Part shown: piece by piece, positions 2,018-61,300 of the stretch | Numbering within the stretch: position 1 is the first letter of the stretch | Layout of the letters: each line of letters begins with the position of its first letter | IMG/VR virus record: IMGVR_UViG_3300025723_000028 | Source of the DNA: an uncultured virus (IMG/VR IMGVR_UViG_3300025723_000028) | Lineage: Duplodnaviria > Heunggongvirae > Uroviricota > Caudoviricetes | Strand: one strand, 5' to 3' | Length of the DNA: 64,000 nt | Position numbers and translations under genes: made by a program | The notes under the pieces: generated by a model | What the model saw: only the letters and a program-made list of their open reading frames with translations | Told to the model about the DNA's origin: nothing | Database searches by the model: none

Positions 2018-2796
2018 AATTTTTAGTTCAGATGAATCTCATACATGAAATGGGATTGTCACAAGTGCGCAATGCGATCGAATCATATCCGCATCAGTAT
2101 GTAAGCGTGATCCCATTTTCCAATGAGTTGATATCCGAAGAGCCAGTTGAAGGCACCGACTATCTTGCCTATGGAAGTACACTGTTTATCAAAATTGGGC
2201 ATGAGCTTGGTTGGCAGGGTGTTTACTTTGACTATGATAACTTTAACTACGAAACCGCAGTTAAGTATCGTAGTGATATGCTGAATGATGATATTATACT
2301 TCCTGCTAGTGAAGTAATTCCATACCTTGAATCATCCACAGTAGATACATGGTTTATTCGGCCTGCGCTTGATCTAAAACATTTTAATGGACAGGTTATT
2401 GAAAGGGAAGAATGTATTACGTGGTTGAAAGATGCCATGGCGTGTGCATCAAGCGGGTCTTATCAAATCACCCCGGATCTTAAAATTGTATTGGCTCGAC
2501 CAAAAAACATTCAAGCAGAATGGCGTTGGTTCATAGTTAATGGGAAGATTATTTCCGGAGCAATGTATCGCTGTCGTGGACAACTTGTTAAGTATCGTGA
2601 GCTAGACCAAACTGTTATTGACGAGGCTCAAAAAATGGCAGATGGTTGGTTACCGCATCTTAATTGTGTCATGGATACTGCATTAGTCGATGACAAACTT
2701 TCAGTAGTTGAATTCAATTGTATCAATGGCAGCGGATTCTATGGACACGATGTCACTGCTATTTTTACAGCACTAGCGGAAGATTATAGTGTTTAA
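2014..2796 (+). CDS. ATP-grasp domain protein
   Basis: WFIRP, EWRWFIVNG, VMD...VVEFNCINGSGFY ATP-grasp pattern. Confidence 0.7.
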   Translation: MKFLVQMNLIHEMGLSQVRNAIESYPHQYVSVIPFSNELISEEPVEGTDYLAYGSTLFIKIGHELGWQGVYFDYDNFNYETAVKYRSDMLNDDIILPASEVIPYLESSTVDTWFIRPALDLKHFNGQVIEREECITWLKDAMACASSGSYQITPDLKIVLARPKNIQAEWRWFIVNGKIISGAMYRCRGQLVKYRELDQTVIDEAQKMADGWLPHLNCVMDTALVDDKLSVVEFNCINGSGFYGHDVTAIFTALAEDYSV

Positions 2797-2889
2797 CAAT
2801 TATTTTTACCAAAATGGTTGATTATGCGTACTTATTTGCGTATAATTTTTATATTAACTAAATAACTTTATAACTTCGTAAAAAAGAAG

Positions 2890-2918
2890 TTGACAAGGAT
2901 ACTAAATAGTAGTACAAT
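2890..2918 (+). promoter_or_regulatory. sigma70-type promoter upstream of leader peptide and tRNA locus
   Basis: TTGACA-17 nt-TACAAT. Confidence 0.75.
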
Positions 2919-2926
2919 TACATATC

Positions 2927-3085
2927 ATGAAAAACACAAGACTTTCCATATCGTATCAGTTACTCCAAACCTCAGCATTATGCTGGAGTCCGGTAGCCAC
3001 TCTACGCTCAGAAAGTCATATTGCGTTTAATATGATTGATACAGGCAAAGAGTATAGTAGGGTCCGAGAAGGATGGGATGGTTAA
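2927..3085 (+). CDS. putative 52-aa leader peptide (attenuator)
   Basis: ATG just after the promoter; MKNTRLSISYQLLQTSALCWSPVATLRSESHIAFNMIDTGKEYSRVREGWDG; followed by a terminator. Confidence 0.55.
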   Translation: MKNTRLSISYQLLQTSALCWSPVATLRSESHIAFNMIDTGKEYSRVREGWDG

Positions 3086-3111
3086 GCAATAGCTAACATC
3101 ATAAACTTTAA

Positions 3112-3145
3112 GGACCCTGGACTAGAAATATGCCAGGGTTTTTTT
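3112..3145 (+). terminator. intrinsic terminator / attenuator
   Basis: GGACCCTGG...CCAGGGTTT stem followed by a T-run. Confidence 0.8.
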
Positions 3146-3362
3146 ATTTTTGCAGTAAGTGTGATAGGCAACGCGAGCCTGTGGCGCACTATAAACATGC
3201 TACTATTAATGAGGGCGGCGTACCGGATGATAAGTTCCTGGCGATAACTGGAATGTGTAAAATGGTATAGTATTAAAGCATATTGGGATCGGCTCTAACG
3301 AGACTCCATAAGATGAGGAACGAAATATGTTTTAATACCGACATTCGTAAGAGTGTCGTAAT

Positions 3363-3439
3363 GTACGTGTGTAGCTGAACGGTTAGGCCACGGATTGCAA
3401 ATCCGTATTATGCAGGTTCGATCCCTGTCACGTACTCCA
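3363..3439 (+). tRNA. tRNA-Cys(GCA)
   Basis: GTACGTG/CACGTAC acceptor, ACGGA-TTGCAAA-TCCGT, T-loop, CCA. Confidence 0.85.
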
Positions 3440-3481
3440 TTTTGCGAACTTACGCTAAATATATATAAAGCGAGGGTTCAA

Positions 3482-4141
3482 ATGTTTTGTCAAAATTGTA
3501 ATATAGAGCACACTGGTATATATGGGTCAGGTAGATTTTGTGGCGTTAAATGTGCGAGAGGGTTTTCTACGAAAGCTAAACGAGAGGAAATTAATAAAAA
3601 AGTTTCCGCTAGCCAAACTGGCAGAAAATTATCTGAAGCGCATAAGAAAAATATAGAATCAGGTAACAATTTTAATAGAGTTGAAAAAGTTACAAAAACT
3701 TGTATTGGATGCTCAACAGAAATAATTTGTCGCATTACATCAAAAAAGAAATTTTGTACTGTTAAATGCTGGGCAACTTACACAGAACAATACAAAGAAC
3801 CTTTTTTATTATATAGAAAAAAATCTAATTTTGATTTTAATATAACAGACTACGAAGATAAATTTGATTTAACGTTGGTAGAGCAGTATGGCTGGTATAG
3901 TCCATCTAACAAAGGAAACAATCTAAATGGAGTTTCTAAAGATCATATGCTAAGTGTCAAAGATGGATTCATATTAGGGGTGGACCCTGAAATTATTAAG
4001 CATCCAGCGAATTGCCAACTCATTCTACATAGACAAAATCAAAGTAAAAGAGAAAAAAGTTCAATAACTTTAGAAGAATTAATGGAAAGAATAGACAACT
4101 GGTTGACAATTAACTCATCCGCTACTATAATACTTGTATAG
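3482..4141 (+). CDS. HNH-type homing endonuclease with Zn-finger and NUMOD3-like segments
   Basis: CxxC motifs, GRKLSEAHKK, SKDH...HPANCQLILHRQN; ATG at 3482 follows TAAATA and an RBS. Confidence 0.75.
   Translation: MFCQNCNIEHTGIYGSGRFCGVKCARGFSTKAKREEINKKVSASQTGRKLSEAHKKNIESGNNFNRVEKVTKTCIGCSTEIICRITSKKKFCTVKCWATYTEQYKEPFLLYRKKSNFDFNITDYEDKFDLTLVEQYGWYSPSNKGNNLNGVSKDHMLSVKDGFILGVDPEIIKHPANCQLILHRQNQSKREKSSITLEELMERIDNWLTINSSATIILV
4103..4131 (+). promoter_or_regulatory. consensus sigma70 promoter upstream of the non-coding array
   Basis: TTGACA-17 nt-TATAAT. Confidence 0.85.
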
Positions 4142-4160: not shown

Positions 4161-5898
4161 CGACGTAATATTGAAGCATACCAAGGCGTAAGCCGATATA
4201 GGGATATAGCCGGGCCCCAAGAGCCTCAGGGTTGGCAGGTTCAAGTCCTGCGCAGTGTGTTTCAATATTACGTTGTAGTATGTATAAAGCGTGGGTTCTC
4301 AACGAGTCCCTGTGCAGAGAACTGCTGTCCCGACATTTGTAGCGCCTGATGATAGAGTAACGCCTTGAAACCTTAGGGTAGCGCGGAGTGATCACAGTCG
4401 GGGAATAACTGATCACCAGGGGACTCACTCTTTATACATACTACTGTCCATATTGAAGTACATTACTCTGGGTCGCTCTCAGGTAGGTACATAGGGATTG
4501 ATCACCCGGGTAGGTTCGAATCCTACAGTAGTGTATTTCAATATGGTAATGTGTAGGCTGATACACAATCGTTGAAGTAAGCTCTCAACGAAATGACTGA
4601 GGGGCTAACTATGGGCAAATTTGAACAAACATAGGAGCCGCATACAATTCTAGATATGTATGTGGGTTGTCAAGTCGGAGATCAGCACCGACACCATATT
4701 GAAGTACATTGACAAGCAAGATAGTTGGGCAAACAATTATCTCGCACAGTTGGTATTTGCCATCCAAGGGCCCTATGGACCTTCAGTGTATTTCAATATG
4801 GTAATATCAGTTGTTAGTGGGTCATATGCGGGACTGACACTAAGGGGTACATCGAGGCTCGGAATCTCGGACACTATCAACACAATAGCACAAAGGTTGT
4901 TGCAACAATCTCTCGTGGTCGCAGACTGTACTACGGTCCTTTCCGTTCGATTCGGAGTGTTATTGGATATGCCATATTGAAGTACACTTAACACCTTCAG
5001 GACCCAGTGGTCGCCATGTAGTCGGTTGTGTGCGCACCTAGTGTATTTCAATATGGTTAATAACCATAGTCGGCCCGTGTTCCCACCGTGCGATACCCGA
5101 CTTAAAAAAGCCGATAGCTATATGTGACGAGCAGGCAGTGATCAACGGTGGGGCTATATTGAAGTACATTACTCTCCAGGGTGGGAACCTGAGCGTTAAG
5201 GTGTAGGTAGTAGATTGAAAAATCGAACCTGTATATATCTCGTATTGCTAAACCTCCCAGGTTATACGGACGTAACATCGGTAGTGTATTTCAATATGGT
5301 ATAAACTATATCAAGCGACTGCAATCAATTGATATAGGTTGTGTAGGTGTACTGGCTGGCACACGGAACCGTAGTAGGCAAAGTTGAAACCCTTGCAGGG
5401 GTGAATGAAATGCCGAAGTGGGACTGGGGGTAGGGTTCGAATCCCTAACACATTTGAATTAAGAGCGAAGGGTTCGCTGGTCTTGTGAAGAGGGGTTCGA
5501 CTCCCTGAGCCGTCTGGTTCGATTCCTGGCGGGGCAGGTGCAATAACAAGACACCATATTGAAGCATACTGTACACAAACGCCAATGGTGAGCGACTCGT
5601 CGAGGGACAGGTATAGTGGGTTCGAACCCCACTGTGTATGAAATGACGATTTCAACAGTGTGTTTCAATATGGTACTCGGGTATACGTCAAAACAAAAGT
5701 AGGAAAAAGAATGGGGAATAATGTACTGTTTAAGGACACCCTGGTCGCCACGTCATCCTTGTGGTCGAAGATATTACCTACTACCTGATTGAAAGAGTAA
5801 CCATATTAAAATACATTAACCGGTGTTGGTATGTCGCACACTGATCGCCTGGACTACGAACCTAGGTAAGACAGAGGTACTAGTGTATTTTAATATGG
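4161..5898 (+). repeat. array of stem-bounded non-coding cassettes (units 4161-4275, 4448-4546, 4693-4802, 4972-5056, 5154-5299, 5553-5674, 5801-5898)
   Basis: Recurrent inverted pair CCATATTGAAGTACATT / AGTGTATTTCAATATGG around unique GC-richer inserts. Confidence 0.9.
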
Positions 5899-5974
5899 CC
5901 AATGGGACTGCATGGTGTGGTCGCCGCACTGTCACTGCGGATATCGATGGGATCGTTACCCATATTGGTCGCCA
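5897..5974 (+). tRNA. tRNA-Asp(GTC), atypical T-loop
   Basis: CCGCA-CTGTCAC-TGCGG; GGCCAAT/ATTGGTC G CCA; T-loop ATCGTTA. Confidence 0.75.
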
Positions 5975-7419: not shown

Positions 7420-7514
7420 AGTAGCGAGCATTGGTATGCGGCTGTGTTTTATAAACACGGGAGACTGGTCAGATGGGCTGGAACGATAGAGTTCGAATCT
7501 CTACGCTACTACCA
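7420..7514 (+). tRNA. atypical tRNA with TAT anticodon (Ile) and long variable arm
   Basis: AGTAGCG/CGCTACT ACCA; TGTGT-TTTATAA-ACACG. Confidence 0.6.
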
Positions 7515-19463: not shown

Positions 19464-19538
19464 GCGTTTGAAGCTAAACGGACAAGCAAGAGCCTCTAAA
19501 ACTCCGAATAGTGGGTTCAACTCCCACCAAGCGCACCA
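19464..19538 (+). tRNA. tRNA with CTA anticodon (amber suppressor candidate, Arg-like body)
   Basis: GCGTTTG/CAAGCGC ACCA; AGAGC-CTCTAAA-ACTCC; T-arm GTGGG-TTCAACT-CCCAC. Confidence 0.7.
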
Positions 19539-22399: not shown

Positions 22400-22598
22400 G
22401 ATGATCGTGCCAACACTGAATCCACGAAACCCGTTCGTGATGCTGGCACATAAAAGAAGTGCGGGAAGTCACGCTAAGCCACACAAGGCTCAGCGCAAGT
22501 TAGATAAGCAGAGGGGGTATAGCTCAATAGCAGAGCATCCGGCTTTTAACCGGTCGACCACGGAGCGTTACCGTGTGCCCCTACCATTATTATATTAA
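22386..22598 (+). CDS. small basic protein whose frame runs through tRNA-Lys
   Basis: AAGGAG RBS; RNPFVMLAHKRSAGSH. Confidence 0.5.
   Translation: MMKSKMIVPTLNPRNPFVMLAHKRSAGSHAKPHKAQRKLDKQRGYSSIAEHPAFNRSTTERYRVPLPLLY
22513..22586 (+). tRNA. tRNA-Lys(TTT), atypical D- and T-loops
   Basis: CCGG-CTTTTAA-CCGG; T-loop AGCGTTA; D-loop lacks GG. Confidence 0.75.
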
Positions 22599-24638: not shown

Positions 24639-25835
24639 ATGTACCCAATAGACAACGTAAAAATGTGGTCCGGCGATATGGAAGTCGAACAGGCTGCTAT
24701 GGATCAACTGCGTAATATCAGTGCTTTGCCAATTTTAGCAGGTCATGTGGCAGTTATGCCCGATGTCCATATGGGCAAAGGTGCCACCGTGGGATCAGTT
24801 ATCCCAACCCGCAGTGCAATTATTCCTGCCGCAGTTGGTGTGGATATTGGGTGTGGAATGTGTGCGGCTATGACTAATCTAACCGCATCTGATTTGCCAG
24901 ATAGCCTAGTCAGCTTGCGTAATCAAATTGAACGTGACGTACCTGTGGGGTTTAACGAACACAAGCAGGGTATTCCCAGTGTAACAGGTCCATATGCTGA
25001 TGTATTGCGTAAGAACTTACGCAATACCATGGATCGTTTTGAACATTTAGCCCTAGTGCCACATTTGAACCGTGCTGACTTTAACAAGATTGGACGGCAA
25101 GTTGGTACTCTTGGTGGCGGAAATCACTTTATCGAGCTGTGTTTAGATAGCGAAGATCGAGTGTGGATCATGTTACATAGCGGCAGTCGTGGTATTGGTA
25201 ATCAAATTGGTTCTGTTGCTATCGAATTAGCTAAGGAGCAAGCATTGAAGCGAGATTACAGTCTTGCTGATCGAGACTTGGCTTGGCTTGACGAAGGAAC
25301 CGCAGAGTTTGATGCTTACATTGAAGCTATGTTATGGGCGCAAGATTATGCACGTTTTAACCGTGATACTATGATGAATTTAGTTACCTCACTGATGCTA
25401 CGTCGATTTCCACAAATGAAAATTGTAGGAGAAGTTGTTAATTGTCATCATAACTTTACCTCCATCGAAGAACATTTCGGTGAAAAAATGTGGGTCACAC
25501 GTAAAGGTGCAGTGTCAGCGCAAGCAGGACAAATGGGAATTATTCCTGGATCAATGGGTGCTAAATCATTCATTGTACAAGGAAAAGGCAATGCCGATTC
25601 TTACTGTTCGTGCTCACATGGTGCTGGGCGTAAACACAGCCGTAATGGTGCAAAACGTCTATTTTCATTAGATGATCTAGCATCGCAGACTGCTGGTGTT
25701 GAGTGCCGCAAAGACTCAGGTGTACTGGACGAAATTCCAGGTGCTTATAAGAACATAGACGACGTTATGAGTGCTCAAAGAGACCTTGTTGAGATCGTTC
25801 ATACGCTAAAACAAGTATTATGTGTCAAAGGTTAA
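24639..25835 (+). CDS. rtcB: RNA 2',3'-cyclic phosphate/5'-OH ligase RtcB
   Basis: VMPDVHMGKG, VGVDIGCG, GTLGGGNHFIE, HSGSRG, SHGAGR, DEIPGAYK. Confidence 0.95.
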   Translation: MYPIDNVKMWSGDMEVEQAAMDQLRNISALPILAGHVAVMPDVHMGKGATVGSVIPTRSAIIPAAVGVDIGCGMCAAMTNLTASDLPDSLVSLRNQIERDVPVGFNEHKQGIPSVTGPYADVLRKNLRNTMDRFEHLALVPHLNRADFNKIGRQVGTLGGGNHFIELCLDSEDRVWIMLHSGSRGIGNQIGSVAIELAKEQALKRDYSLADRDLAWLDEGTAEFDAYIEAMLWAQDYARFNRDTMMNLVTSLMLRRFPQMKIVGEVVNCHHNFTSIEEHFGEKMWVTRKGAVSAQAGQMGIIPGSMGAKSFIVQGKGNADSYCSCSHGAGRKHSRNGAKRLFSLDDLASQTAGVECRKDSGVLDEIPGAYKNIDDVMSAQRDLVEIVHTLKQVLCVKG

Positions 25836-28160: not shown

Positions 28161-28781
28161 ATGATTATAAACTGTGGGCCCGACTTTGATCAACGTACTT
28201 TATCACTGATACTTCCAGAAAAAAGAAGTGTCATAGCAGTTCTTATTAGTGGCGGAATCGACAGTGCTATACTATATTATTTGCTGTTGACTGAAAATAA
28301 TAATACAGGAAACAAGCATAACATATTACCCATATCCATAATGAGATCAGAAGGATCTGAATATTTTAGTAAATTAGTAGTGGCGAATATGAATGAAAAA
28401 TTTGATTTGCCTAAACATGATGCTATTATAGTCGGCGATCCATTATTGCCTGATAATGAACAGGTTAAGTCAGGTGTGCTAGAAGCTTTTAATATAGGAT
28501 TTAATATGGTGTACTGCGGTATTATTGATCAACACCCAGATCATATGGTTGGATGGACTCCGGCTGCTATAACAGAAAGTCACAAATTTAAAATCCCATT
28601 AAAAAATCTTAATAAATCACACATAATAGATCTTGTAATTAAATGCAATCAACAGGATTTATTTTATATTACGCATACTTGTGTTAAATTTAAAATTGGC
28701 AGATGCCATGCGTGTAATGGGTGTAATGAGAGAGCGTGGGGATTTGAGAAATTGGGATTGGTTGATCCTGGTAACATATAA
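28161..28781 (+). CDS. QueC-like PP-loop ATPase
   Basis: ISGGIDSA; THTC...CHACNGCNER zinc motif. Confidence 0.7.
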   Translation: MIINCGPDFDQRTLSLILPEKRSVIAVLISGGIDSAILYYLLLTENNNTGNKHNILPISIMRSEGSEYFSKLVVANMNEKFDLPKHDAIIVGDPLLPDNEQVKSGVLEAFNIGFNMVYCGIIDQHPDHMVGWTPAAITESHKFKIPLKNLNKSHIIDLVIKCNQQDLFYITHTCVKFKIGRCHACNGCNERAWGFEKLGLVDPGNI

Positions 28782-49332: not shown

Positions 49333-52300
49333 TTAATTAACTCCCCTTAAAAAGAGCGCCGATGAAGTTGTAGTATCTTGCAATGGGGTGCCATTCGATG
49401 CTGTTTGTGGGCTCGTACCTTGAGCATACCATGTTACGCCACGACGTACTAAAATAGTTACTTCTTCTCCGACAGCTGGGGCAGTTATAAATGTCACTGA
49501 AACTGGTGTTTCATTAGTTATAGTGTACCCAGTGGTTTGCAATATACCACCGAGATATACTTCTACTTGTCTATTTAAAGATTGCCAATAAGTTGTATTA
49601 GTAATAGCAGTATTATTAGGAACCGTAATAATCGCACGGTAGTAAAATCCATTATCAACTACTACTGTGCCTTCTGTATAACTATTTGCTGCTACCCATG
49701 TGATTGCATCGGTAAATGCTAATGAAATATCTACTGCTTCAAATACTGTAGTTACTCCATTTCCTATCATTCTATCACTAACGATATAGTTTTGAGATGC
49801 AGCAGGCAGTAAATTGCTTCTACCCATGTCATAAACAGTCGACCCTATTGTATGCGATGCCGCTGCGGTGCCAGCTGTGCCACGTAATAAACTACTGACC
49901 GTATTAGCTACCATATCAATTTCACGATACATAATGCGTTCGCCATTTATAGTTATAATTCCCCATGTATTGGTAGAAAAATTAGGAATTGTTAATGCAC
50001 TAGCATTAGCTACATGTATAATATCATCAGTTTGTGCTAAATTTTGAGTCAATAATGTAGTAGAGTCTATGGTCATACGATAAGTTGCTTGAACCCCGCG
50101 CATATCCTGGAATATTCTAAATTCCATAGCTTCAGGTACCACTGAACAAGTAACATTCGTCACTACCACAACATCAGTTGTCTGTATTGTGCCACTATTT
50201 AAACTCAATACATTTCCATTAATTGTATAATCAATATTTGGAGATAATACTTTTCCATTTTTAGAAACCCATGGGCGTGAAATATCTGTATAAGATTGAT
50301 ATAATACAAAATTATTGATGTAAATTGTTTCTCCTACGGTAGCATCAAATTCACCTGGTAATGATGATGCAGCGCCAGGCGGATTATCGAAGTCTGTTGT
50401 ATCAAACGCTTCATAAACTGATATTCCTTCACTATCTGGCCCGACAAAAATTTGCGTTGACAGTCTTTGTTCTCGTGTATCATTAAATGATGTAATCGAA
50501 ATAATTTGACCAACTTGCGGAACGAGTCCTTTGCCTGTTATAAAGGTTAAAGTATGTGCTATAGGATCAATTATATACTGCGCTGTCGCATTTACTGCAA
50601 TATAAATTTGTGCATTATCTGCAGGTGTGTTAGTCAGTATTACAAATACAGTATCAATATTTGGATCAAACGGTACAGTTGAATAATAATCTGCTTTCAT
50701 ATTTCCACTAAATCCAGTATATATCGATATGTCATATAATGCAGGATCTAATAATATACCGTCAACATAAACACTTACCATAGATTTAGTTATTGCTGCT
50801 GAATTGATTCCTATTCTCGATGGTAATGGGAATCCAGTATTTCCATTTTGTACTATGTAGCTGGCCCCAGCAGAACCTTGTGCAACAACCCCGCCCACTG
50901 TTACAATTGCAACCACTGGATTAGTATATTCTAAACTAAATGCTGGATCCAGATCAAATACAGTTTGTCCTGGTGTTGCTACACTAAAACTCTGAGTCAC
51001 AGGTAAACTCCAACTGTAATTTGTAGTTACATTTTGAATTGTAGTAGGTTGAATTACTACTAAACTTATAAAATCAGTTGAATTATATACATTAGTAAAT
51101 GTTACTTGTGTCGAGGACAATGAATAAGGAGCGTAGGAATAATTTGAATTAGCCAAATATACGCCATTAACAAAAATAACAAATTCTTGTATTGCTGGTG
51201 TAATACCATCATTTTGGTAGTATGCTACAGGAACTATCAATGAATTTCCTACTTGACTGCCATTATAAGTATTTTTATATACTTGATTGCCGCCACCCAA
51301 TTCATACACATAAATTGCAATTTGATCACCTTGTGCAACCAAAATAGATGTATTTAAAATTGTAACTGTTTGGACAGTCCAATCTATTGTATAATCAACT
51401 CCTAGAGTTAAATCATACCCTTGAGTTACATCAGTAACTTCCACGATAAATGGATATGGTAATGCACCTGCAAAACTAATAGTTGCATTGCTGCTTTCAT
51501 AAATGAATTGTATTACTGCTTGCGGAAAGCTGTGTCCTAACCCTTGCCAATCAGCCCCAGGAGTCGTATAAACTCGCATGTCTAATGTATCAAATTCAAT
51601 TCCTGGCACTAATTCTTCTGGTGCATGACTTTCGTATACATCTACATACTTACCACCATCGATATTGATATCAGTAGGGCGTGTTCCAAGGTACGGATCT
51701 AAATAACTGCTTGCAAAAATTGTGTCCAATACCCCTATGTCATATGTTGGTAATCCATTTGCATCATAAGATATGTTATCAAAAGGATTAATATCAAAAT
51801 TATCTCGGGCATATCCAGTGTCTTGGCTGAAATTTAATCCAGAAACTTGTACTCCAGGATAGTCAACACCATCTATAAGCAATGGTAAAGATAATCCAGG
51901 AGAATTTACGGTGCTGACATAATAGCCCATAGTACGGTTAACACCGCTTAATTCACTGGCTGAAACCATTGTCCATTGCGACGGGTCAAATACTGAATTA
52001 GATTCCGTATTATTAGAGCTCCAAACTATATTGTCGTATCGTACCTGAGTCCCAGTTTCATAAGTTATATTTGATTCCCAGTCAACGATTGTTGATTCAT
52101 ATTCATAGCGATCATATTTTAATGTAAGATTAAATGTACGAGATAATGTATGTCCAGACGGATTGCCCATTATTACACTGGCCTGAGCTGGTTGACCAAC
52201 AAACAATAATGATGCTGTACCGTTAATTTGATCGTTGTGTCCAATTGGAGCAACATTTCCTAATATTCCTGCTTCGGCAACTTCAAATATATTGCCGTTC

Positions 52301-55300
52301 GGAGCAATAATATAACTATTCGAAACTACTGCCAACCCTGCACTCCATTCAATAGTAACTCCAGGTAATCCACCACCTGTGATATTTATAAATGCATCTG
52401 TAATATAGCCACTACCTGGATTAGTTATTGTAATCGAAATAATATTTCCAGTCGTATTAATTATACTGGTTCCAGTAGCAGGGTATCCAGCATACATTAA
52501 CGTAGCACTACCATCAATCGCTGAACCAGACATGAATGTAGGAGGAGTAGACCCTGATGTACCCGGAACTGTAATGGTATATAAGTTATTTGCATAATAT
52601 ACTTGTTGTCCAATACTATAAGCGGTGTTTGGATACCACATCGTACCGAATGTTATAATAGGAGCATTTCTATATCCTGTTCCTGCATTAGTAATATTGA
52701 CACCTTGCACGTTCAACAGATAATTATTAAACCATTGACTATATAAACTTGGATATTGCCAAATTTGTGCATTAGGCGCAGTATTGCTTACTAAAGAATT
52801 ATGAGGGGTTATAGCTTGATTGTACGGAGTCAATATAGGGCTTACAAATTGTGGACTTTTCAGCAATGAATTCCAATATGCAGGTAAGTCAAAATCAGTT
52901 AAATCTCCTAAGAAATTATCCTCTCCGCTATAAGTTAAATTAAACTGTCGCACCTGAACATGATAAGGTTTAACTTCTTGGAAATAATTTACTACAAAAT
53001 CTTGATTATCTGAAAGATAAGTTTGATAAGGTAATAATGAACGAATCTTATGATTGACATCGACATAACTTGTTTTAATTAACCAAGATGGATCAGTAAA
53101 CTCACTGTATACAAAATTAAACATTAATATTAAACTACTATTACGTTCAATTAGTAAATCTTCAATATAGATTTCCTCATTCAACGCACGTATAATATAA
53201 CGGGTTTCAATCTGTGCAGTTTCATCAAAATATTGTGAATCATAAGTTTGTGCATCAAACCCAAAATCAGCAACTGCGTAATTCCATAATTCTTCTTTAA
53301 AGGCTATAGTGCCATCTTCTAACCCGACACGTTGCCAGTCACTGACAGGATTAACACCTGTACGTAAATAAATTTCCCATTTGCCCGAACCATTAGAAAT
53401 AACACGCACAGACGACCCTACTGGTGCTGTTGTATAACTTAATGTTGCCAATTGCCCATAATTTTGAACCGCAGCAACTGGTGCAATAGTCGAATTATAT
53501 CCTGGTAAATACCAATTGACATAATACCAATATAATGGAGTATCATAACTTTGTACTTGTGTTAACAACAATGTTCGAGTAGCACTAACCGTATAAATTG
53601 TCCATCGGCCGTTTTCGGTACTATCATTTAATACAAGATACTTGTATCCAACTGGAACTACATACAGATCTTGATAGCCTAAAACTTCTAAGTTAGGTAC
53701 TTCAAAATTCCATGCTCCAGATCCAGCAGAAGGAATCGGATCTGCTGCATTCAATAAATTAAAACTACGTGTTTCGGAAATAGGATACTGCAATAAAACT
53801 GAATTTGCTCTACCTAAATAATTTTCTAATGCAGTAAATCTATCTGCAAACATTGACTGTCTGGGACGGAACTGTACACCAAAACGCATACCTGGACTTA
53901 AAGTTGGATCTGGTACTGCATTACCTGCTGTATCAATACCACATAAACTATCTATAAACTTTCGATATAACTGAGTATTAAGGAATGATTTTGCAATGCC
54001 ATCTGTAACTATTTGATATTCTTGATGTACTACAGAATCTGTTAATTTTCTTGAAAAACTAACATTCAATATAGTATTAGTAGCATTTAACAAACGCTGT
54101 GCATTATAAATCGCAATCGTTGATGCATTTAATCCAGCAATGAAAGGTAATCCACTGCTACGAGGATCAAAAATATAGCTGGCAACTCCTGCTGCACTTA
54201 ATGTTTTTCCGGAACCTGAAGCAATTGTTGTAATTCCCTTGACCCAAAAATAATAAATTGTTGTAAAAATATTATTTGATCCCAATGATGTTGCTACACA
54301 ATAACTAGTAGGACTCAATGGTGTGCCTGATCCAGTGTAGTTAGATGGTGGGGTAGTACTTGATATCCATTGGTAAACATCAATACTACTGCCTGGGAAA
54401 GTCGTACCCCAACGACGACTAGCATATACTATGTCATCTTGACTAGGATCGATGAATCTTACTGTATCAGTATCCCACCACATTTCACCGATGTGTTCTG
54501 CGCCCCAGAATTGACCATTATTATGAACTGTACCCTGATTATATTGTGCTGGGTCAACTGATCCAATATAATCAATGTTACTACGAGCAATTCCAAGTAT
54601 TTTACCTTGTAATGGATCAAAGAAGTCGAAGTATGTTTGATACGCACCATTTAACGTATCGTTAACTCCAATAGCTTGTCCACCATTGTAACTAAACACT
54701 CCATCGATCGCATGTACATCTACAACTGGTTGTTGTACACGTATAGGCGCCCATGCAGGAGTATTGTTTGGATTATTAAAAATTACTATATATCCATTAC
54801 CATTAGTAGAAGTATTTGTTCCGCCTGGAGCGCCTACCATTAATCTACCATTTGTATAATTTACTGCGGTGCCAAAGAAATTACCAGATTCAATGACATT
54901 ATTGTAAATTTGTTGCCCAAATGCAAATTGTCCAGGATTTTTGATATTATTTGTACTACTTGGGAAGAAATCATATGTATATGCCACCCCTCCGTTGTTA
55001 ATCGGATTATAAAAAGTGGTACTATTTTCATCAAAGTAAGTTTGATTAGCATCAAAAGTTGTTGGCTCGTAAACGTTTCCATTTGGTGCACCAACAATTA
55101 AATTAACTGCGCTAGAATCAATACTTAGACTTGCACCAAATTGAGCATTGAATGCTGGAGATGGGCTTAAAATTTGCTGAGTAAAGACTAAAGTATCAAA
55201 TCCCAATTGACCAAATACCGATGTTACTGTCCCAGGAAGTACTGTAATTAAATTGTTTGGTGTTCCTGCTTTGGAGTTTTTAATAGATAATGTTAATCTT

Positions 55301-58300
55301 CCAGAAACAACAATTATTTTTACACCAGGTAAAGGTGCAAATACAAAATTAATAGTTTCCGCAGAAGGATCATAGGAGTAATCTATCCCAGCAATTTGCA
55401 ACACATTATTCAAATAGACAACAGTAGTATATGAACTAGCAACCGTATATAAAGATCCAATATAAAAAACTTTAGTTGTACTATCGCCTGTAAATGTTAA
55501 ATCTGGAGTAGTTGATGCTATTACATTCGGTATAGCCATTTCATTGATTGCTTTCGCAAAACCTGCTACTGTATTGTTAGGTTGCGCTGGCACAGTTACT
55601 ATTGAATTATTAATACGCAATGTACCAGAAGGAGTTAGAACAGGATTAGCTATTGTAGATGTGGTAACCCCGTATACCCTCGATTGATTAACTTGGTGAT
55701 CAACTGACCCAGCTAAATCAATATAAGTGCTATCGTATGGTGCACCGATATAAAGACTGCAATTCAATGGACATGAATCAAGTACTAGCCCGTATTCTGC
55801 TGATTTTACTGGTGTGCTACTTGATAATTCTTGAATTTGTGTAATTTGATTAGTACCAATTTCAATTATATCTCCGTAATTAAACGTTATATTAGAAAAT
55901 ATGATATTATTTCCGCTTATACTATATTGTCCTTCGATTGACTGGCTAGTAGTTAATAAAAATGTTTCGTTGACGCTTACTGTCACAGGATTTGTAACAT
56001 TACCAGGTATTGTATATGTTAGTTGAGAAGGATTCGAAACTATATAACGAATTACGCTTCTGTCAAACATATACACTACCCCGGAATTATTTAAATTATC
56101 ACGTGTAGTATTAGGTGCTCCTACGTATATTTGTGCTCCATCCGTTGTTGTTGCAACTGATGATCCGAAATTATCTCCGGATATCGAATCTGTAGACGTA
56201 ATAGTAGTAACATATTGCCAATATGTCGGTGTTGTTACTATAATATCTGCTCCAACTGGCGGAATAGTAATAAATGTCAACTCAGTAGTTTCATTATTAA
56301 ATGTATAATCAAAATAGGGACGTTGTATTACTTTATTTACAGTCACTGCAAAAGTTTCGATAGTGGTTGCATTATACAAATATGTGTTTAATGCAAAGGT
56401 ATTAGTTTGATTTATACCAATACCAGTATACGTATACCCGCTTATTGCACCGCCTACTGCAATTCCAGTAACAGTTATTGTTAAATCATTGGCAGTAGTA
56501 GTTCCTCCTAATCTTGATCCAGAAATAACTAACGTATCATTAATAGCATAAGACTGTCCGCCAGTTATTAGATTTATTACATATTCGCCGCGTACATTTT
56601 GAATTGTAAAAATTGAATTATATCCAGCGCCTGAGGTTGAACTTTGTCTCAGATTGTAATAAGTCGTAGCATCTAATTGTTTACTCAAATTGCGAGTCAA
56701 CGTAAGTGTTTGTCCTGACACTGTTGGGTGAACTAATGTTACAAAATTTTGATCTACAGTATAATCTTTTCCGTAAACTAACTCAATTCCACTTAATGCA
56801 ACTGATAATTGTTCAGGATGCAAGTAATTAATCTGTATTGCGTTTGAATATTCGTAACTAGTTACACTATAGTTTGTAGTATATGTAATAGTTTGATTTA
56901 CTACATCTATTTTTTCATAGGCATAAACTGAATTAGCTGCCGGTGCTCCGATATACATCCATTTTTCGTCTGCACTAATTACTCCCGATGTTCCAAATTT
57001 AATAGGATTAAAATTTTGTGTCGGCGGAACTAATAATTGAGTAATAGTGAAGGAATTTACATCTGAATTTCTATAAATTACTACAGCATAGCCCATGTTT
57101 GATGCACTGGTATTAGCTCCTGCTATAGCCCAATTAGAACTACCAAAGGATACCATATTACCAAAATTACTTGAATCAATAGTTTCCAGTATTAATGTGC
57201 TGTTAAATTGATAGTCAGTAAAATTTCCTCTAATATAAGTCAGTATAGAATTGGCTCCAGGTGCACCTACCATAGCGCCAAAGTTAGATGCTGATTGTGT
57301 TATACTTACACCATATCGATCACTAGGAGTAAATCCCGTGGAAATAACAGAATCGGTAATAAATGGAGTTTGTTTTTGTACAGTTTCCCAATGTCCACTG
57401 CCGTTATTATCTATCCAAGCAATCGAACCCGGTACTAAATTATTAACATAAGGTAAGTTTGAAATGTCACTAGCTTGTGATACTCGAGCACTTTGTAAAT
57501 GAAAGACTAACCCAGTACCTGTTATATTAGTTACATTTGTGTTTACGAAACTAAAGGCGATAATAACGGTAGTTGGAGTTGGTGCTGCTAAAACACGATA
57601 AACCCCGTTAACCCCATTATTAAAATATTTAATAATAATTAAATCATATAATGATAACCCATGTGCCGCGTTAAATTGTACAACACTAGTACCATTGAGA
57701 TTATCAGTTAACCGTATCATTTGCCCTGGCACACTGGCTACACGATATACACCCCAGTCATGCGTGTTGGTTTTAGCAATCCAGATATAAGTGCCAATTC
57801 CAATATTGTTGATATCAGCTTCAATTGCCGCAGGATCTTCAATACTGAATACCGTAACATCAACATCATCTAAACATACATAACCTGCAGACGGTAATGC
57901 ATCTGGCAAACTACCTGATTCATATATAGTAGGAAGAATGTTAATATTATTAATAGAATAACTTTCTTTCCATAAATTGCTCAAATAAACCTGCTGATTA
58001 GCTTGACTTACATCGCCTGGGTTTGTAATTTGTATAGTTGACGGATTGTAAGATAATAGAGCTTCGTTTAATTGAATTTCAAAGTAACTCTTATTAGCAT
58101 TTGCCCCGTACACTCCGGATAATATGCCCCAGTTTTCATAGATATTATAATCGCCGCTTTCTTTGCCGTTAAGTTTTGCTAAGTTGAATATTTCAGCAGC
58201 TTGTAATGTACCTTTGGTACCAATAAATTGTTGATATAACTGAACTTGTGTTACACCATTAAGATTCATGTCTGTCATATATGGACGAGGACGGAATCCA

Positions 58301-61300
58301 ATCAATCCAAATGCAAATAAATCGTTATCACTGGTTAAATTAGCTTGGTATACATCGTATGAGCTTACTAATTGATCTGCTTTATTAGCCAAGTTAGGCA
58401 ATAATCCAGTGTCAATTGCTTGATAATCACTTTTTATCCACTCACTATAATTAAAGGTTTCTTGTGGCTCACTAATAACCAATGCTTGCCAGTAGGTATT
58501 TTTGTATAATACCATATCTCCCTTGGTATATTTTTGATAAGATTGCCATTGCTTTACATTGTTTAAGTTAAGAATAAATCCTTGTGCATTTAATTGCCCA
58601 TCCCATTCAGTTGTCGTAGATGCGATTAAACTTAAACGAACTTGTCTTGCGGCTGTAATTGGATCATATATCAAATCTCTAAATTGTGTAGTATTATCTA
58701 GCACAATCATATCTTCGTAATTTGTGAATTTCAATGTAAGATAATTGATAGTTTGTCCGTTTGTAGATGTAATCGAAAATTGATTACCATCACGATTAAC
58801 TATCATTGAGCTAACATCCAACACAGTACGATTTTGATCCAGTAACATATTTTCCGGAGTTATGCTGGCAATAGTATCTACAATACTGATAGGTTGACTT
58901 GCTTTAATTGTAGTGGCAGCTGGATTTAGATTAATCATTGTACCTGCTTGCCACCCTTGTTCTCCAAAGTATAAAAACTCTTGAGACATCTGTAACCAAT
59001 TTAATGTGTACCCATTGTATGTATTATCAAATATTAATCCTTGAGATGTTAGCCATGCTCCATAACTCATTAAGAAATCGCAGACACTAGATGGACTGGT
59101 AAAAACATATCCATACGGAATTTGTTTTATATTATTTGTATATTGTGATGGAACTTGAACTGTGGTATTACCAGCGGTAATAGTCTGGTATAACCCTACT
59201 GGACTACTTTCTAATATTTCAAAATAAGGTTGTACATTGCTATAACCATAAACACTATATCCTATTCCACCTGAGCCTAAACGTTCTACTTGTACAATAA
59301 CAGAACTATATGTAATTTGATCAAATGGTTGATTTTTATAAAAAATCAAACTATAACTGCTTGGGGGAATTTGTAAACTATTATTCGTAGAACTTGGTCC
59401 GGCTCTTTCAGTAGATATTTGAACATACGCAGAATCACTGAATGAAGCCATACGGTAGCATAGACGCACATCTAAGTTTGCTAATTCGTTAGTCAATGCC
59501 GTAGTACTATTAACTCCTGTTTGTTGATTATAGTCAACAATCCAATTGATATAACTTGCTTTGCTTACACCATTACCATATACTTGTACACCTGAAGCAT
59601 TTAAACGGTAGCGACTATTTAACAAGTATTGACCTAGTGCATTATTGTATCGATATAAATCTCTATCAGCAAATAATGAGAAAAATTGTGCTGGTTTTGT
59701 CAGTGCTAATAATCGCATAATAGCAAATGGATACGAACTACTATTCCACCAAGATGCCTGAACTGGACCACCGTCACCAGATACCCATGATTGTTGGAAC
59801 CCATACGGATCATTACGACCCATTACGCATTCAGACGGAGGCAGAAGATAACCTTCTGAACTAGCAGGAATAATTTTTGATAAACCAGGTCTTATATATT
59901 CAGGAAGAACATATGGACCAACAGGATCTGCAACAATACCAGCTTCTAAATCATCCCAAAGTACTGTATTTCCTGATGTATATGGACCTGGACCATAACG
60001 TGTCGCCCACCATGCAGGTTCTTCAGAAAATCCAACCATTTCCCAAGGTGTAGTATTTGGGGTTTCAGTATCATAAAAATAACGATATATGCCTCTCCAG
60101 TTACCCTGTAAGAATTGTGTTTGGTCGATACGATTAGCGGCTTGGCTATAGTTATAAGTAAACGGATTGTCTGTAATATAATTTTGTTGAGTATAATCTA
60201 CACGATTTTGCCCAACCCATGTTAAGAAATCCTCGCTCATTATTTGATTCACTTCCGAATATGTGTAAGGCGTTTTTCGAAAGAATCCAGGTAATAAAGC
60301 AGTAGTTTGCGCTGGGTAAAAAGTAGGATCTACTTGATCTGATGTCAATGGAATTGGATTATCATCGACTTTAATGTTATCATAAATTCGCTTTTCAAAT
60401 TCAAGTAATACTTGATCTCGAATATCACCAAAAGCAATAGTAGTTGATCCGTCGTGTCCTTGAATTACTACAGTAGGCTCTGAGTACGTATCGTCAATAT
60501 AAATTGACGGAGTAAATTTAGGATATAACCCCATTTTACTAGGTGTATTTGGACACCAGCTGGCCACAGTAGTTGGATATTCGTTAATAGTAACCACATC
60601 GCCAACATGTAGTGGTACTAAAATTGTTAATTTCTGTGCATCAACTGACACAGTATATTGACTATTGCGCAATAATAATATATCATTGACATATACCAAT
60701 AACCCAAGATAATTACTTGACGTAAAGTTATACATTTGACTTGTGTTAAAAGTCGCTGATGTAATTGGATTAACTACCGTTGTCGTCGATGTATAATTTG
60801 TGCCAATCGGAAGCATATCTGACCAATAAAACGAATTTGACTTTGTCAAACTTTTTGTTATATTACTGATTCCCAGATCAAGTACTTGCGATACCGTTTC
60901 ATTTCCAGTAAGATTTAATTGTGTTACTGCGGTTAGCAATTTATTTTTATACTTGATGTATTCTCTGCTGTTATAATCTAAAGCAGCAAATAAATCGTAA
61001 TTAATGTTACGTAGGAAAAATCCAGCTAATGTTAATGGCGAAGATTGTTGTAATATTAACTGACCATAAGGAATAATATTTCCCAAATCTCGTGTATTAT
61101 TACGTCCATTTATTGGCCCAGCTAGATTAACTAAATTTTCACAAATAGTAGTATAATGTTGTCGAACTGTACCAAGACTAAATTTTGCACTATTACCATT
61201 AAACGGATTATTTTCTAAATTAATAGGAATTTGATAAAATGCAGTAGCACTCACTTGCTGACTATATGCCAATATTTCAACTATGTCACCAATAACCATA

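Follow-up and report, generated by a model that had tools for sequence, protein, structure and literature searches.

A 64,000-nucleotide (nt) stretch of DNA from an uncultured virus of the class Caudoviricetes (IMG/VR record IMGVR_UViG_3300025723_000028; this whole stretch is hereafter the window) carries, at positions 2890–3145, a promoter, a short leader open reading frame (ORF) and a terminator, followed by a structured RNA and an array of transfer RNA (tRNA) genes. We propose, with a probability of roughly 0.7, that this element is a ribosome-mediated transcription attenuator that gauges overall translation capacity, or the supply of aminoacyl-tRNAs. The proposal is built on comparison with related phages and on RNA folding: a terminator and an antiterminator that share one arm both covary, the geometry of the helices around the stop codon is fixed, the leader frame is kept open and the coverage of amino acids in the leader peptide is retained. 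An earlier note on this DNA had read the element as a translation-dependent attenuator responding to any amino acid, and these four lines of evidence support that view; the codon diversity that it also stressed is not conserved. The element and its immediate surroundings comprise the following features.

2818–2846, plus strand: upstream sigma-70-like promoter, TTGATT-17-TATAAT, 10/12 matches to the consensus.
2890–2918, plus strand: promoter, TTGACA-17 nt-TACAAT, 11/12 matches; the leader ATG lies 8 nt past the −10 box.
2927–3085, plus strand: leader ORF, 52 codons and TAA, all 20 amino acids; frame open in relatives.
3055–3065, plus strand: 5′ arm of the antiterminator (UAGU and AGGGUCC), within codons 43–47; covariation.
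3068–3109, plus strand: inner hairpin between the antiterminator arms, holding the stop codon (3083–3085); folding, in five of five lineages.
3112–3124, plus strand: shared arm, serving as the antiterminator 3′ arm (GGACCCU..ACUA) and, at 3112–3120, as the terminator 5′ arm; takes part in both helices.
3133–3145, plus strand: terminator 3′ arm (CCAGGGU) and T-run; covariation, reached by 0/500 shuffles.
3150–3270, plus strand: conserved structured RNA directly past the terminator; 9/23 predicted pairs with compensatory changes.
3270–3338, plus strand: long-stem element, a 15-base-pair (bp) stem around a variable interior; fold z = −2.6.
3363–3439, plus strand: tRNA-Cys (GCA), the first downstream tRNA gene, from a tRNA call.

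The succession of promoter, 52-codon ORF, terminator and tRNA locus is as the earlier note had it, and its finer points about the element hold as well. The ORF starts with ATG and has 52 sense codons, none of which is used more than three times; a script counted 40 different codons for 20 types of amino acid, and AGA, AGG, CGA, ATA, CTA and TCG occur once each. AGGGTCC at 3059–3065 (codons 45–47) is exactly complementary to GGACCCT at 3112–3118, and the small hairpin described at 3077–3100 is real, with GAUG paired to CAUC, further inner pairs and the stop codon inside. The GC-rich terminator stem (3112–3120 with 3133–3141) encloses a 12-nt loop and is followed by a run of seven T. Both promoters were found in a scan against the consensus. 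The hexamers of the 2890–2918 promoter and their spacing are kept in 9/9 distinct variants, around a spacer of variable sequence, and the 2818–2846 promoter would yield a transcript that is not leaderless.

A DNA search with positions 2700–3500 gave no match among cultured-phage records. Using the translated 52-residue peptide, words of conserved DNA and an alignment of peptides as queries, we recovered 15 distinct DNA variants of the element, on contigs of uncultured phages. A conserved block just past the terminator led to four diverged lineages (L015, L108/L115, L114 and L117), so that the element is found in five diverged lineages in all, each time ahead of the conserved structured RNA and usually ahead of tRNA genes. 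Contigs bearing the element reach 235,812 bases and hence belong to large phages. tRNA genes lie at most 1.2 kilobases (kb) downstream in four of the five lineages and are absent from the L117 DNA examined; L114 and L115 have 10 and 7 of them, respectively, within about 1.3 kb, and L015 has six, beginning about 580 nt past the terminator.

The pairing that the earlier note had drawn from a single sequence is conserved in these relatives. Within the window's own clade, pairing in the terminator is complete (100%) and two of its pairs are compensatory, a result that 0/500 shuffles reach, and the antiterminator is 97% paired with one compensatory pair, which does not go beyond shuffles; covariation within the clade is too weak for the second helix. 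Covariation across lineages was assessed with an alignment of 11 sequences spanning all five (alignment A8). There, the terminator is 97% paired and 4/9 of its pairs are compensatory (0/500 shuffles), and the 7-bp core of the antiterminator is 96.1% paired with 4/7 compensatory pairs; its covariation score was reached in 0/500 shuffles and its pair count in 3/500. Columns 73–79 of the same alignment take part in both helices.

Folds were computed for 12 distinct variants and for the five lineages. The antiterminator is the minimum-free-energy (MFE) fold in 11/12 variants, and blocking its 5′ arm gives the terminator together with the inner hairpin at 1.0–3.6 kcal/mol above the MFE in 12/12; by these models the two folds are nearly isoenergetic. 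Nascent RNA that ends before the terminator 3′ arm has been made is predicted to fold into the antiterminator in 12/12 variants. When the bases that a ribosome would cover at the stop codon are blocked, the models yield the terminator in 12/12 variants and also in 5/5 lineages. The geometry is equally constant: in every one of the five lineages the antiterminator 5′ arm falls within the final codons of the ORF and ends 13–18 nt before the stop codon, the terminator stem begins 23–27 nt past the stop codon's first base, and a hairpin bearing the stop codon sits between the antiterminator arms.

In the mechanism that we infer from these features, transcription from the 2890–2918 promoter would start at, or a few bases from, the AUG at 2927, and the 52 codons would be translated from a leaderless message. 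The nascent RNA would by default adopt the antiterminator, with 3055–3065 paired to 3112–3124 around the stop-codon hairpin; this would keep the shared arm from the terminator 3′ arm and permit read-through into the 3150–3270 RNA, the long-stem element and tRNA-Cys. Given coupling between ribosome and polymerase, a ribosome keeping pace would melt or occupy the 5′ arm (codons 43–47) and then sit on the stop codon in the antiterminator loop, and the freed shared arm would pair with 3133–3141, leading to termination at the T-run. Any upstream delay would favour read-through, and the physiological trigger could be the lack of an aminoacyl-tRNA, the cleavage of tRNAs or a general stress on translation. 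As the leader keeps at least one codon for each amino acid, often exactly one for Cys and for His, such a gauge could respond to shortage of any of them.

The mechanism depends on a translated leader, and the frame is indeed retained. It is open in 15/15 distinct DNA variants of the window's clade and in 4/4 distant lineages, with an ORF length of 45–67 codons across the five lineages. When the 63 variable columns of nine variants were placed at random, all eight relatives stayed open in 13/5000 trials (P = 0.0026), and the same column permutation gives 130.8 ± 9.9 expected amino-acid differences against 101 observed (P = 0.003). The sole indel within the ORF among the clade variants is of 3 nt, and 1-nt indels occur just past the stop codon. 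The codon usage of the leader is atypical for the phage, with a value similar to a codon adaptation index of 0.547 versus 0.713 ± 0.067 for the phage's own genes, in the lowest 1.4% of 1141 gene windows.

A retained frame with fewer amino-acid changes than expected would also suit a small protein-coding gene of the usual kind, flanked by a promoter and a terminator of its own, in which the peptide is functional and the antiterminator is mere 3′ structure of the messenger RNA (mRNA). Gene callers do list the ORF as a hypothetical protein, and each family has its conserved peptide blocks, among them LCWSPVA and FMPTYWS. We nevertheless judge this explanation most unlikely. Peptide identity between lineages is only 22–29%, while the RNA switch and the position of the stop codon are kept, and no Pfam family matches the peptide. 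In the conserved blocks, third codon positions are kept along with the first and second, as would be expected of constraint on the RNA itself. In a second family of leader peptides described below, the single Cys and the single His are each spread over 10 alignment columns, unlike those of a folded or metal-binding protein, and the two folds are near-isoenergetic in every variant.

The composition of the leader peptide is the other property that appears to be maintained. On the window alone it is only mildly unusual, since open shuffles of the ORF's bases reach at least 40 codons with P of about 0.006–0.011 and all 20 amino acids with P of about 0.09–0.10; it is the relatives that carry the weight. 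Of the distinct clade peptides, which were gathered by a protein search with the peptide alignment and include members down to 56% identity, 24/24 contain all 20 amino acids. In a permutation that reassigns only the residues introduced by substitutions, leaving their positions and their sharing among peptides intact, complete peptides number 14.4 on average and all 24 are complete with P = 0.0002; with a composition-based null (null B), 24 was reached in 0/5000 trials. A protein search with the L117, L115 and L114 peptides gave the second family, with 73 cluster representatives of mostly 45–51 residues. As deposited, 60/73 hold all 20 amino acids, and 59/73 do so after trimming to the family start, compared with a null of 39.6 ± 4.6 and a maximum of 55, so that 0/3000 permutations reach 59. 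The coverage permutations used the consensus as ancestor, not a tree. Exactly one Cys is found in 59/73 of these peptides and exactly one His in 68/73. We lean slightly towards the view that the complete amino-acid set is itself under selection.

The second-family peptides (P0017–P0089) share a small number of C-termini, namely EGWDD, EDRVA, EGAGYA and RRTVV, and the window's own C-terminus, RVREGWDG, recurs in P0086. Because the C-terminal codons overlap the antiterminator arm, the probable origin of these endings is constraint on the RNA, or the reading of similar RNA in different frames.

Several observations weigh against the attenuator as proposed, beginning with the amino-acid set. Among the second-family peptides, 14/73 lack one or two amino acids (C in 8, V in 6, W in 1); moreover, these 73 proteins are gene calls without DNA, and the switch was seen only in the three members analysed as DNA. 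The distant lineages L015, L115/L108, L114 and L117 hold 20, 20, 19 and 19 amino-acid types, L114 being without W and L117 without C, and none is significant singly (shuffle P of 0.26, 0.05, 0.21 and 0.40; about 0.09 in a Fisher combination by hand). Selection for codon diversity or for rare codons was considered and rejected: the number of distinct codons in relatives, 34–40, does not exceed the null (P = 0.66). Of the pan-codon sensor that the earlier note envisaged, the conservation of amino-acid coverage (P = 0.0002; 0/3000) therefore stands and the conservation of codon diversity falls.

These same facts would fit an attenuator that sensed only general ribosome speed or an antibiotic-like stress, with the full amino-acid set as an unselected by-product of a balanced, unconstrained sequence; open shuffles of such sequences already average 17.4–18.8 amino-acid types. 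We hold this to be unlikely. Permutations that keep positions and shared ancestry reject it in both families, and losses of His, Cys and Phe at one alignment column are accompanied by their presence at another.

A further group of contrary observations concerns translation of the leader. A crude motif search finds no Shine–Dalgarno sequence (SD) before the leader ATG, the same search finding one before 18/36 long ORFs. Folding of the leader at full length gives a strong structure (z = −3.4) whose MFE form pairs the AUG, so that the start codon is perhaps hidden. Variable sites are spread nearly evenly over the three codon positions (19/18/26), which is a weak coding signature. Lineages L114 and L115 have, at the start site, an ATG that opens a mini-ORF of only two codons (ATG-NNN-TAG at the predicted transcription start, L114 938–946 and L115 934–942), and the long ORF begins 36–45 nt downstream; ribosomes could possibly re-initiate there. 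The lack of an SD means that initiation would have to be leaderless, and in lineages whose ORF starts there the ATG lies 6–9 nt past the −10 box, as in a leaderless mRNA; such a leaderless or nearly leaderless start, the spacing suggests, accounts for the missing SD. The earlier note had taken the short 5′ leader and doubtful SD as possible signs of an untranslated ORF. The absence of an SD is confirmed and a leaderless arrangement would take its place, and the retained frame (P = 0.0026) argues for translation.

The strong fold, the even conservation over codon positions and the missing SD would equally be features of an untranslated, riboswitch-like leader or of a stand-alone small RNA, in which the 5′ 130 nt bind a ligand, a tRNA or a protein and the open frame is incidental; a transcript stopping at the terminator would be an RNA of 220 nt. 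Such an RNA, however, should not keep a frame open beyond chance and in 4/4 distant lineages, with its stop codon at a fixed place in the structure and its lone indel in frame, and retention of 20 amino acids would be meaningless in it. The leader's 5′ domain also contains few compensatory pairs, and neither a T-box riboswitch nor any other known RNA family was matched in Rfam (E ≤ 1 on a 31-kb stretch; E ≤ 10 on 2880–3370). We consider this explanation very unlikely.

The remaining points against a translation-dependent attenuator relate to the switch and its setting. A consensus terminator scan does not list the 3112–3145 terminator, because the scan allows loops of 3–8 nt and this one has 12. 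No anti-antiterminator (a pairing of the 1:2 type) was found, and the antiterminator persists in the MFE fold and in the centroid fold of the entire leader, so an untranslated transcript would read through constitutively, including any that comes from the 2818–2846 promoter. The IMG/VR contigs nearest to the window in their copy of the adjacent R2K ATP-grasp gene, L003 and L011 (83–84% identity), have no leader at the syntenic site, where a tRNA starts about 56 nt past the ATP-grasp gene; a diverged copy of the element, L015, lies about 10 kb away on the same contig as L011. Finally, the tRNA array does not depend on this element throughout. A promoter with 12/12 consensus matches lies at 4103–4131 and others follow further on, so that later tRNA groups have their own promoters and the attenuator is not the sole control of the array.

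Read-through into the phage tRNA genes, as the earlier note had pictured it, therefore needs qualification. No promoter-like site was found by the scan between the 3112–3145 terminator and tRNA-Cys; the structured RNA and the long-stem element come before it, and the rest of the array, 26 more tRNA genes on the same strand past 3363–3439, is promoted separately. The structured RNA, present in 5/5 lineages, shows its compensatory changes in an alignment of seven sequences and has no Rfam match in the E ≤ 10 search of 2880–3370. The principal target of regulation may be this RNA and not the tRNAs. Its loops include UGGCGAUAAC.

The long-stem element at 3270–3338 preserves its stem in L115, L114 and L117 despite altered sequence. 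It is one of eight repeat units, the others lying at 4166–5900, each with a 15–20-bp stem formed from the conserved motifs CCAUAUUGAAGUACA and UGUAUUUCAAUAUGG. The interiors of the units are variable and branched, span 40–126 nt and have fold z-scores of −2.6 to −6.3; some contain a tRNA-like T-arm, and one scores 27.1 bits against a tRNA model threshold of 29. The repeats may be stems for processing by RNase III, or RNAs similar to Y RNAs. Among 43 ORFs scanned, none showed a Ro/TROVE domain, and the sole match to YrlA (E = 0.23) overlaps a tRNA. The promoter at 4103–4131 sits in the last codons of an ORF at 3482–4141 that has no Pfam match, and points into the repeat units and further tRNAs.

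The gene context fits a theme of tRNA damage. Pfam searches identified an RtcB RNA ligase within the tRNA region (24639–25835, E = 3.7e-125) and, in or beside that region, a QueC-like protein (28161–28781) and a dual-specificity (DSP/PTP) phosphatase (1571–2017). The R2K ATP-grasp protein of the RimK-like clade (2014–2796) is a further gene there related to RNA or translation. We see about an even chance that the leader acts as a complete 'one of each' test message within a closed feedback loop reporting on all 20 aminoacyl-tRNAs. In such a loop, host tRNAs that are in short supply or cut by tRNA-targeting defences would make ribosomes lag, and the structured RNA and phage tRNAs would then be made; the nearby RtcB ligase could repair cleaved tRNAs.

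Other observations on these sequences stand apart from the element. Two Rfam tRNA matches, at 19464–19535 and 22513–22583 (46.4 and 51 bits), have no ARAGORN call, and the tRNA-Ile(UAU) call at 7420–7514 is unusually long at 95 nt. On the related contig L007, positions 237–311 hold a tRNA with the anticodon CUA, called tRNA-Pyl by ARAGORN, which would read the amber stop codon. A giant minus-strand ORF of at least 4759 codons (49333–63999; 4888 codons if read to the window edge) runs off the window.

Classical attenuators of amino-acid operons (trp, his, leu, thr, pheA) combine a leader ORF with an intrinsic terminator and an antiterminator that have one arm in common, and the position of the ribosome decides between the two. 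The phage element resembles the trp/his type in its leader ORF, intrinsic terminator and arm-sharing antiterminator and, according to our models, in an ORF placed so that a ribosome can exclude the antiterminator. It differs in having no run of codons for one amino acid. Unlike in trp-type leaders, moreover, no 1:2 pairing was found, the default of an untranslated transcript would be read-through rather than termination, and the regulated genes are RNAs. The leader also does not match the model of a T-box riboswitch, with its Stem I specifier and antiterminator bulge.

The closest known system, judging by what the report in PMC10274678 describes of it, is the whiB7 (wblC) attenuator of mycobacteria and other actinobacteria, in which efficient translation of an upstream ORF (uORF) leads to a Rho-independent terminator and impaired translation to an antiterminator and read-through. 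Sensing there is described as following amino-acid content: removal of Trp codons reduces, and removal of His codons abolishes, the response to starvation for that amino acid, and the hits relate to 18/20 amino acids (PMC10274678). The same source states that the Mycobacterium smegmatis uORF contains every amino acid but Cys and that whiB7 uORFs are universally enriched in Ala. Besides the logic of translation and termination, the two systems, on that description, have in common that the ORF varies strongly in length and sequence between species, as do the phage leaders, whose peptides share 22–29% identity around a switch that is kept. On the same basis, the element differs from whiB7 in being carried by a phage, in lying before a structured RNA and tRNA genes, with no gene for a WhiB7/WblC transcription factor, in lacking Ala enrichment (3 Ala in 52 residues), in its probably leaderless start and in the retention of full 20-amino-acid coverage itself; the likeness is one of logic, and sequence homology is not expected.

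Stalling in a short uORF is likewise reported to relieve premature termination at vmlR (PMC9226507), toiL/topAI (PMC12121999) and mef/mel (PMC4335068). As those reports present them, these are resistance or toxin genes in cellular genomes, with stalling tied to particular drugs or codons. The long, horizontally spreading tRNA array of Anabaena sp. PCC 7120 is described as being induced when translation is impaired (PMC8421152); the main text of that paper does not contain the words attenuat-, leader peptide, terminator or uORF, and sets out no such mechanism. Our literature searches of open-access papers found no attenuator before phage tRNA genes.

We know of no account of how phages time and dose the expression of their tRNA genes. 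Recent reports link phage tRNAs to the evasion of defences that cleave tRNAs (PMC10264068, PMC11555353, PMC11464382). If the attenuator reading is true, a cis-acting gauge of total aminoacyl-tRNA supply would give a phage tRNA array a regulatory logic in which more tRNA is made when translation falters, and the leader would be a natural case of selection on the amino-acid inventory of a peptide rather than on its sequence. The design is compact enough for cell-free work and for reuse as a sensor of translation capacity. The same reading would single out the conserved 3150–3270 RNA as a stress-induced product of these phages.

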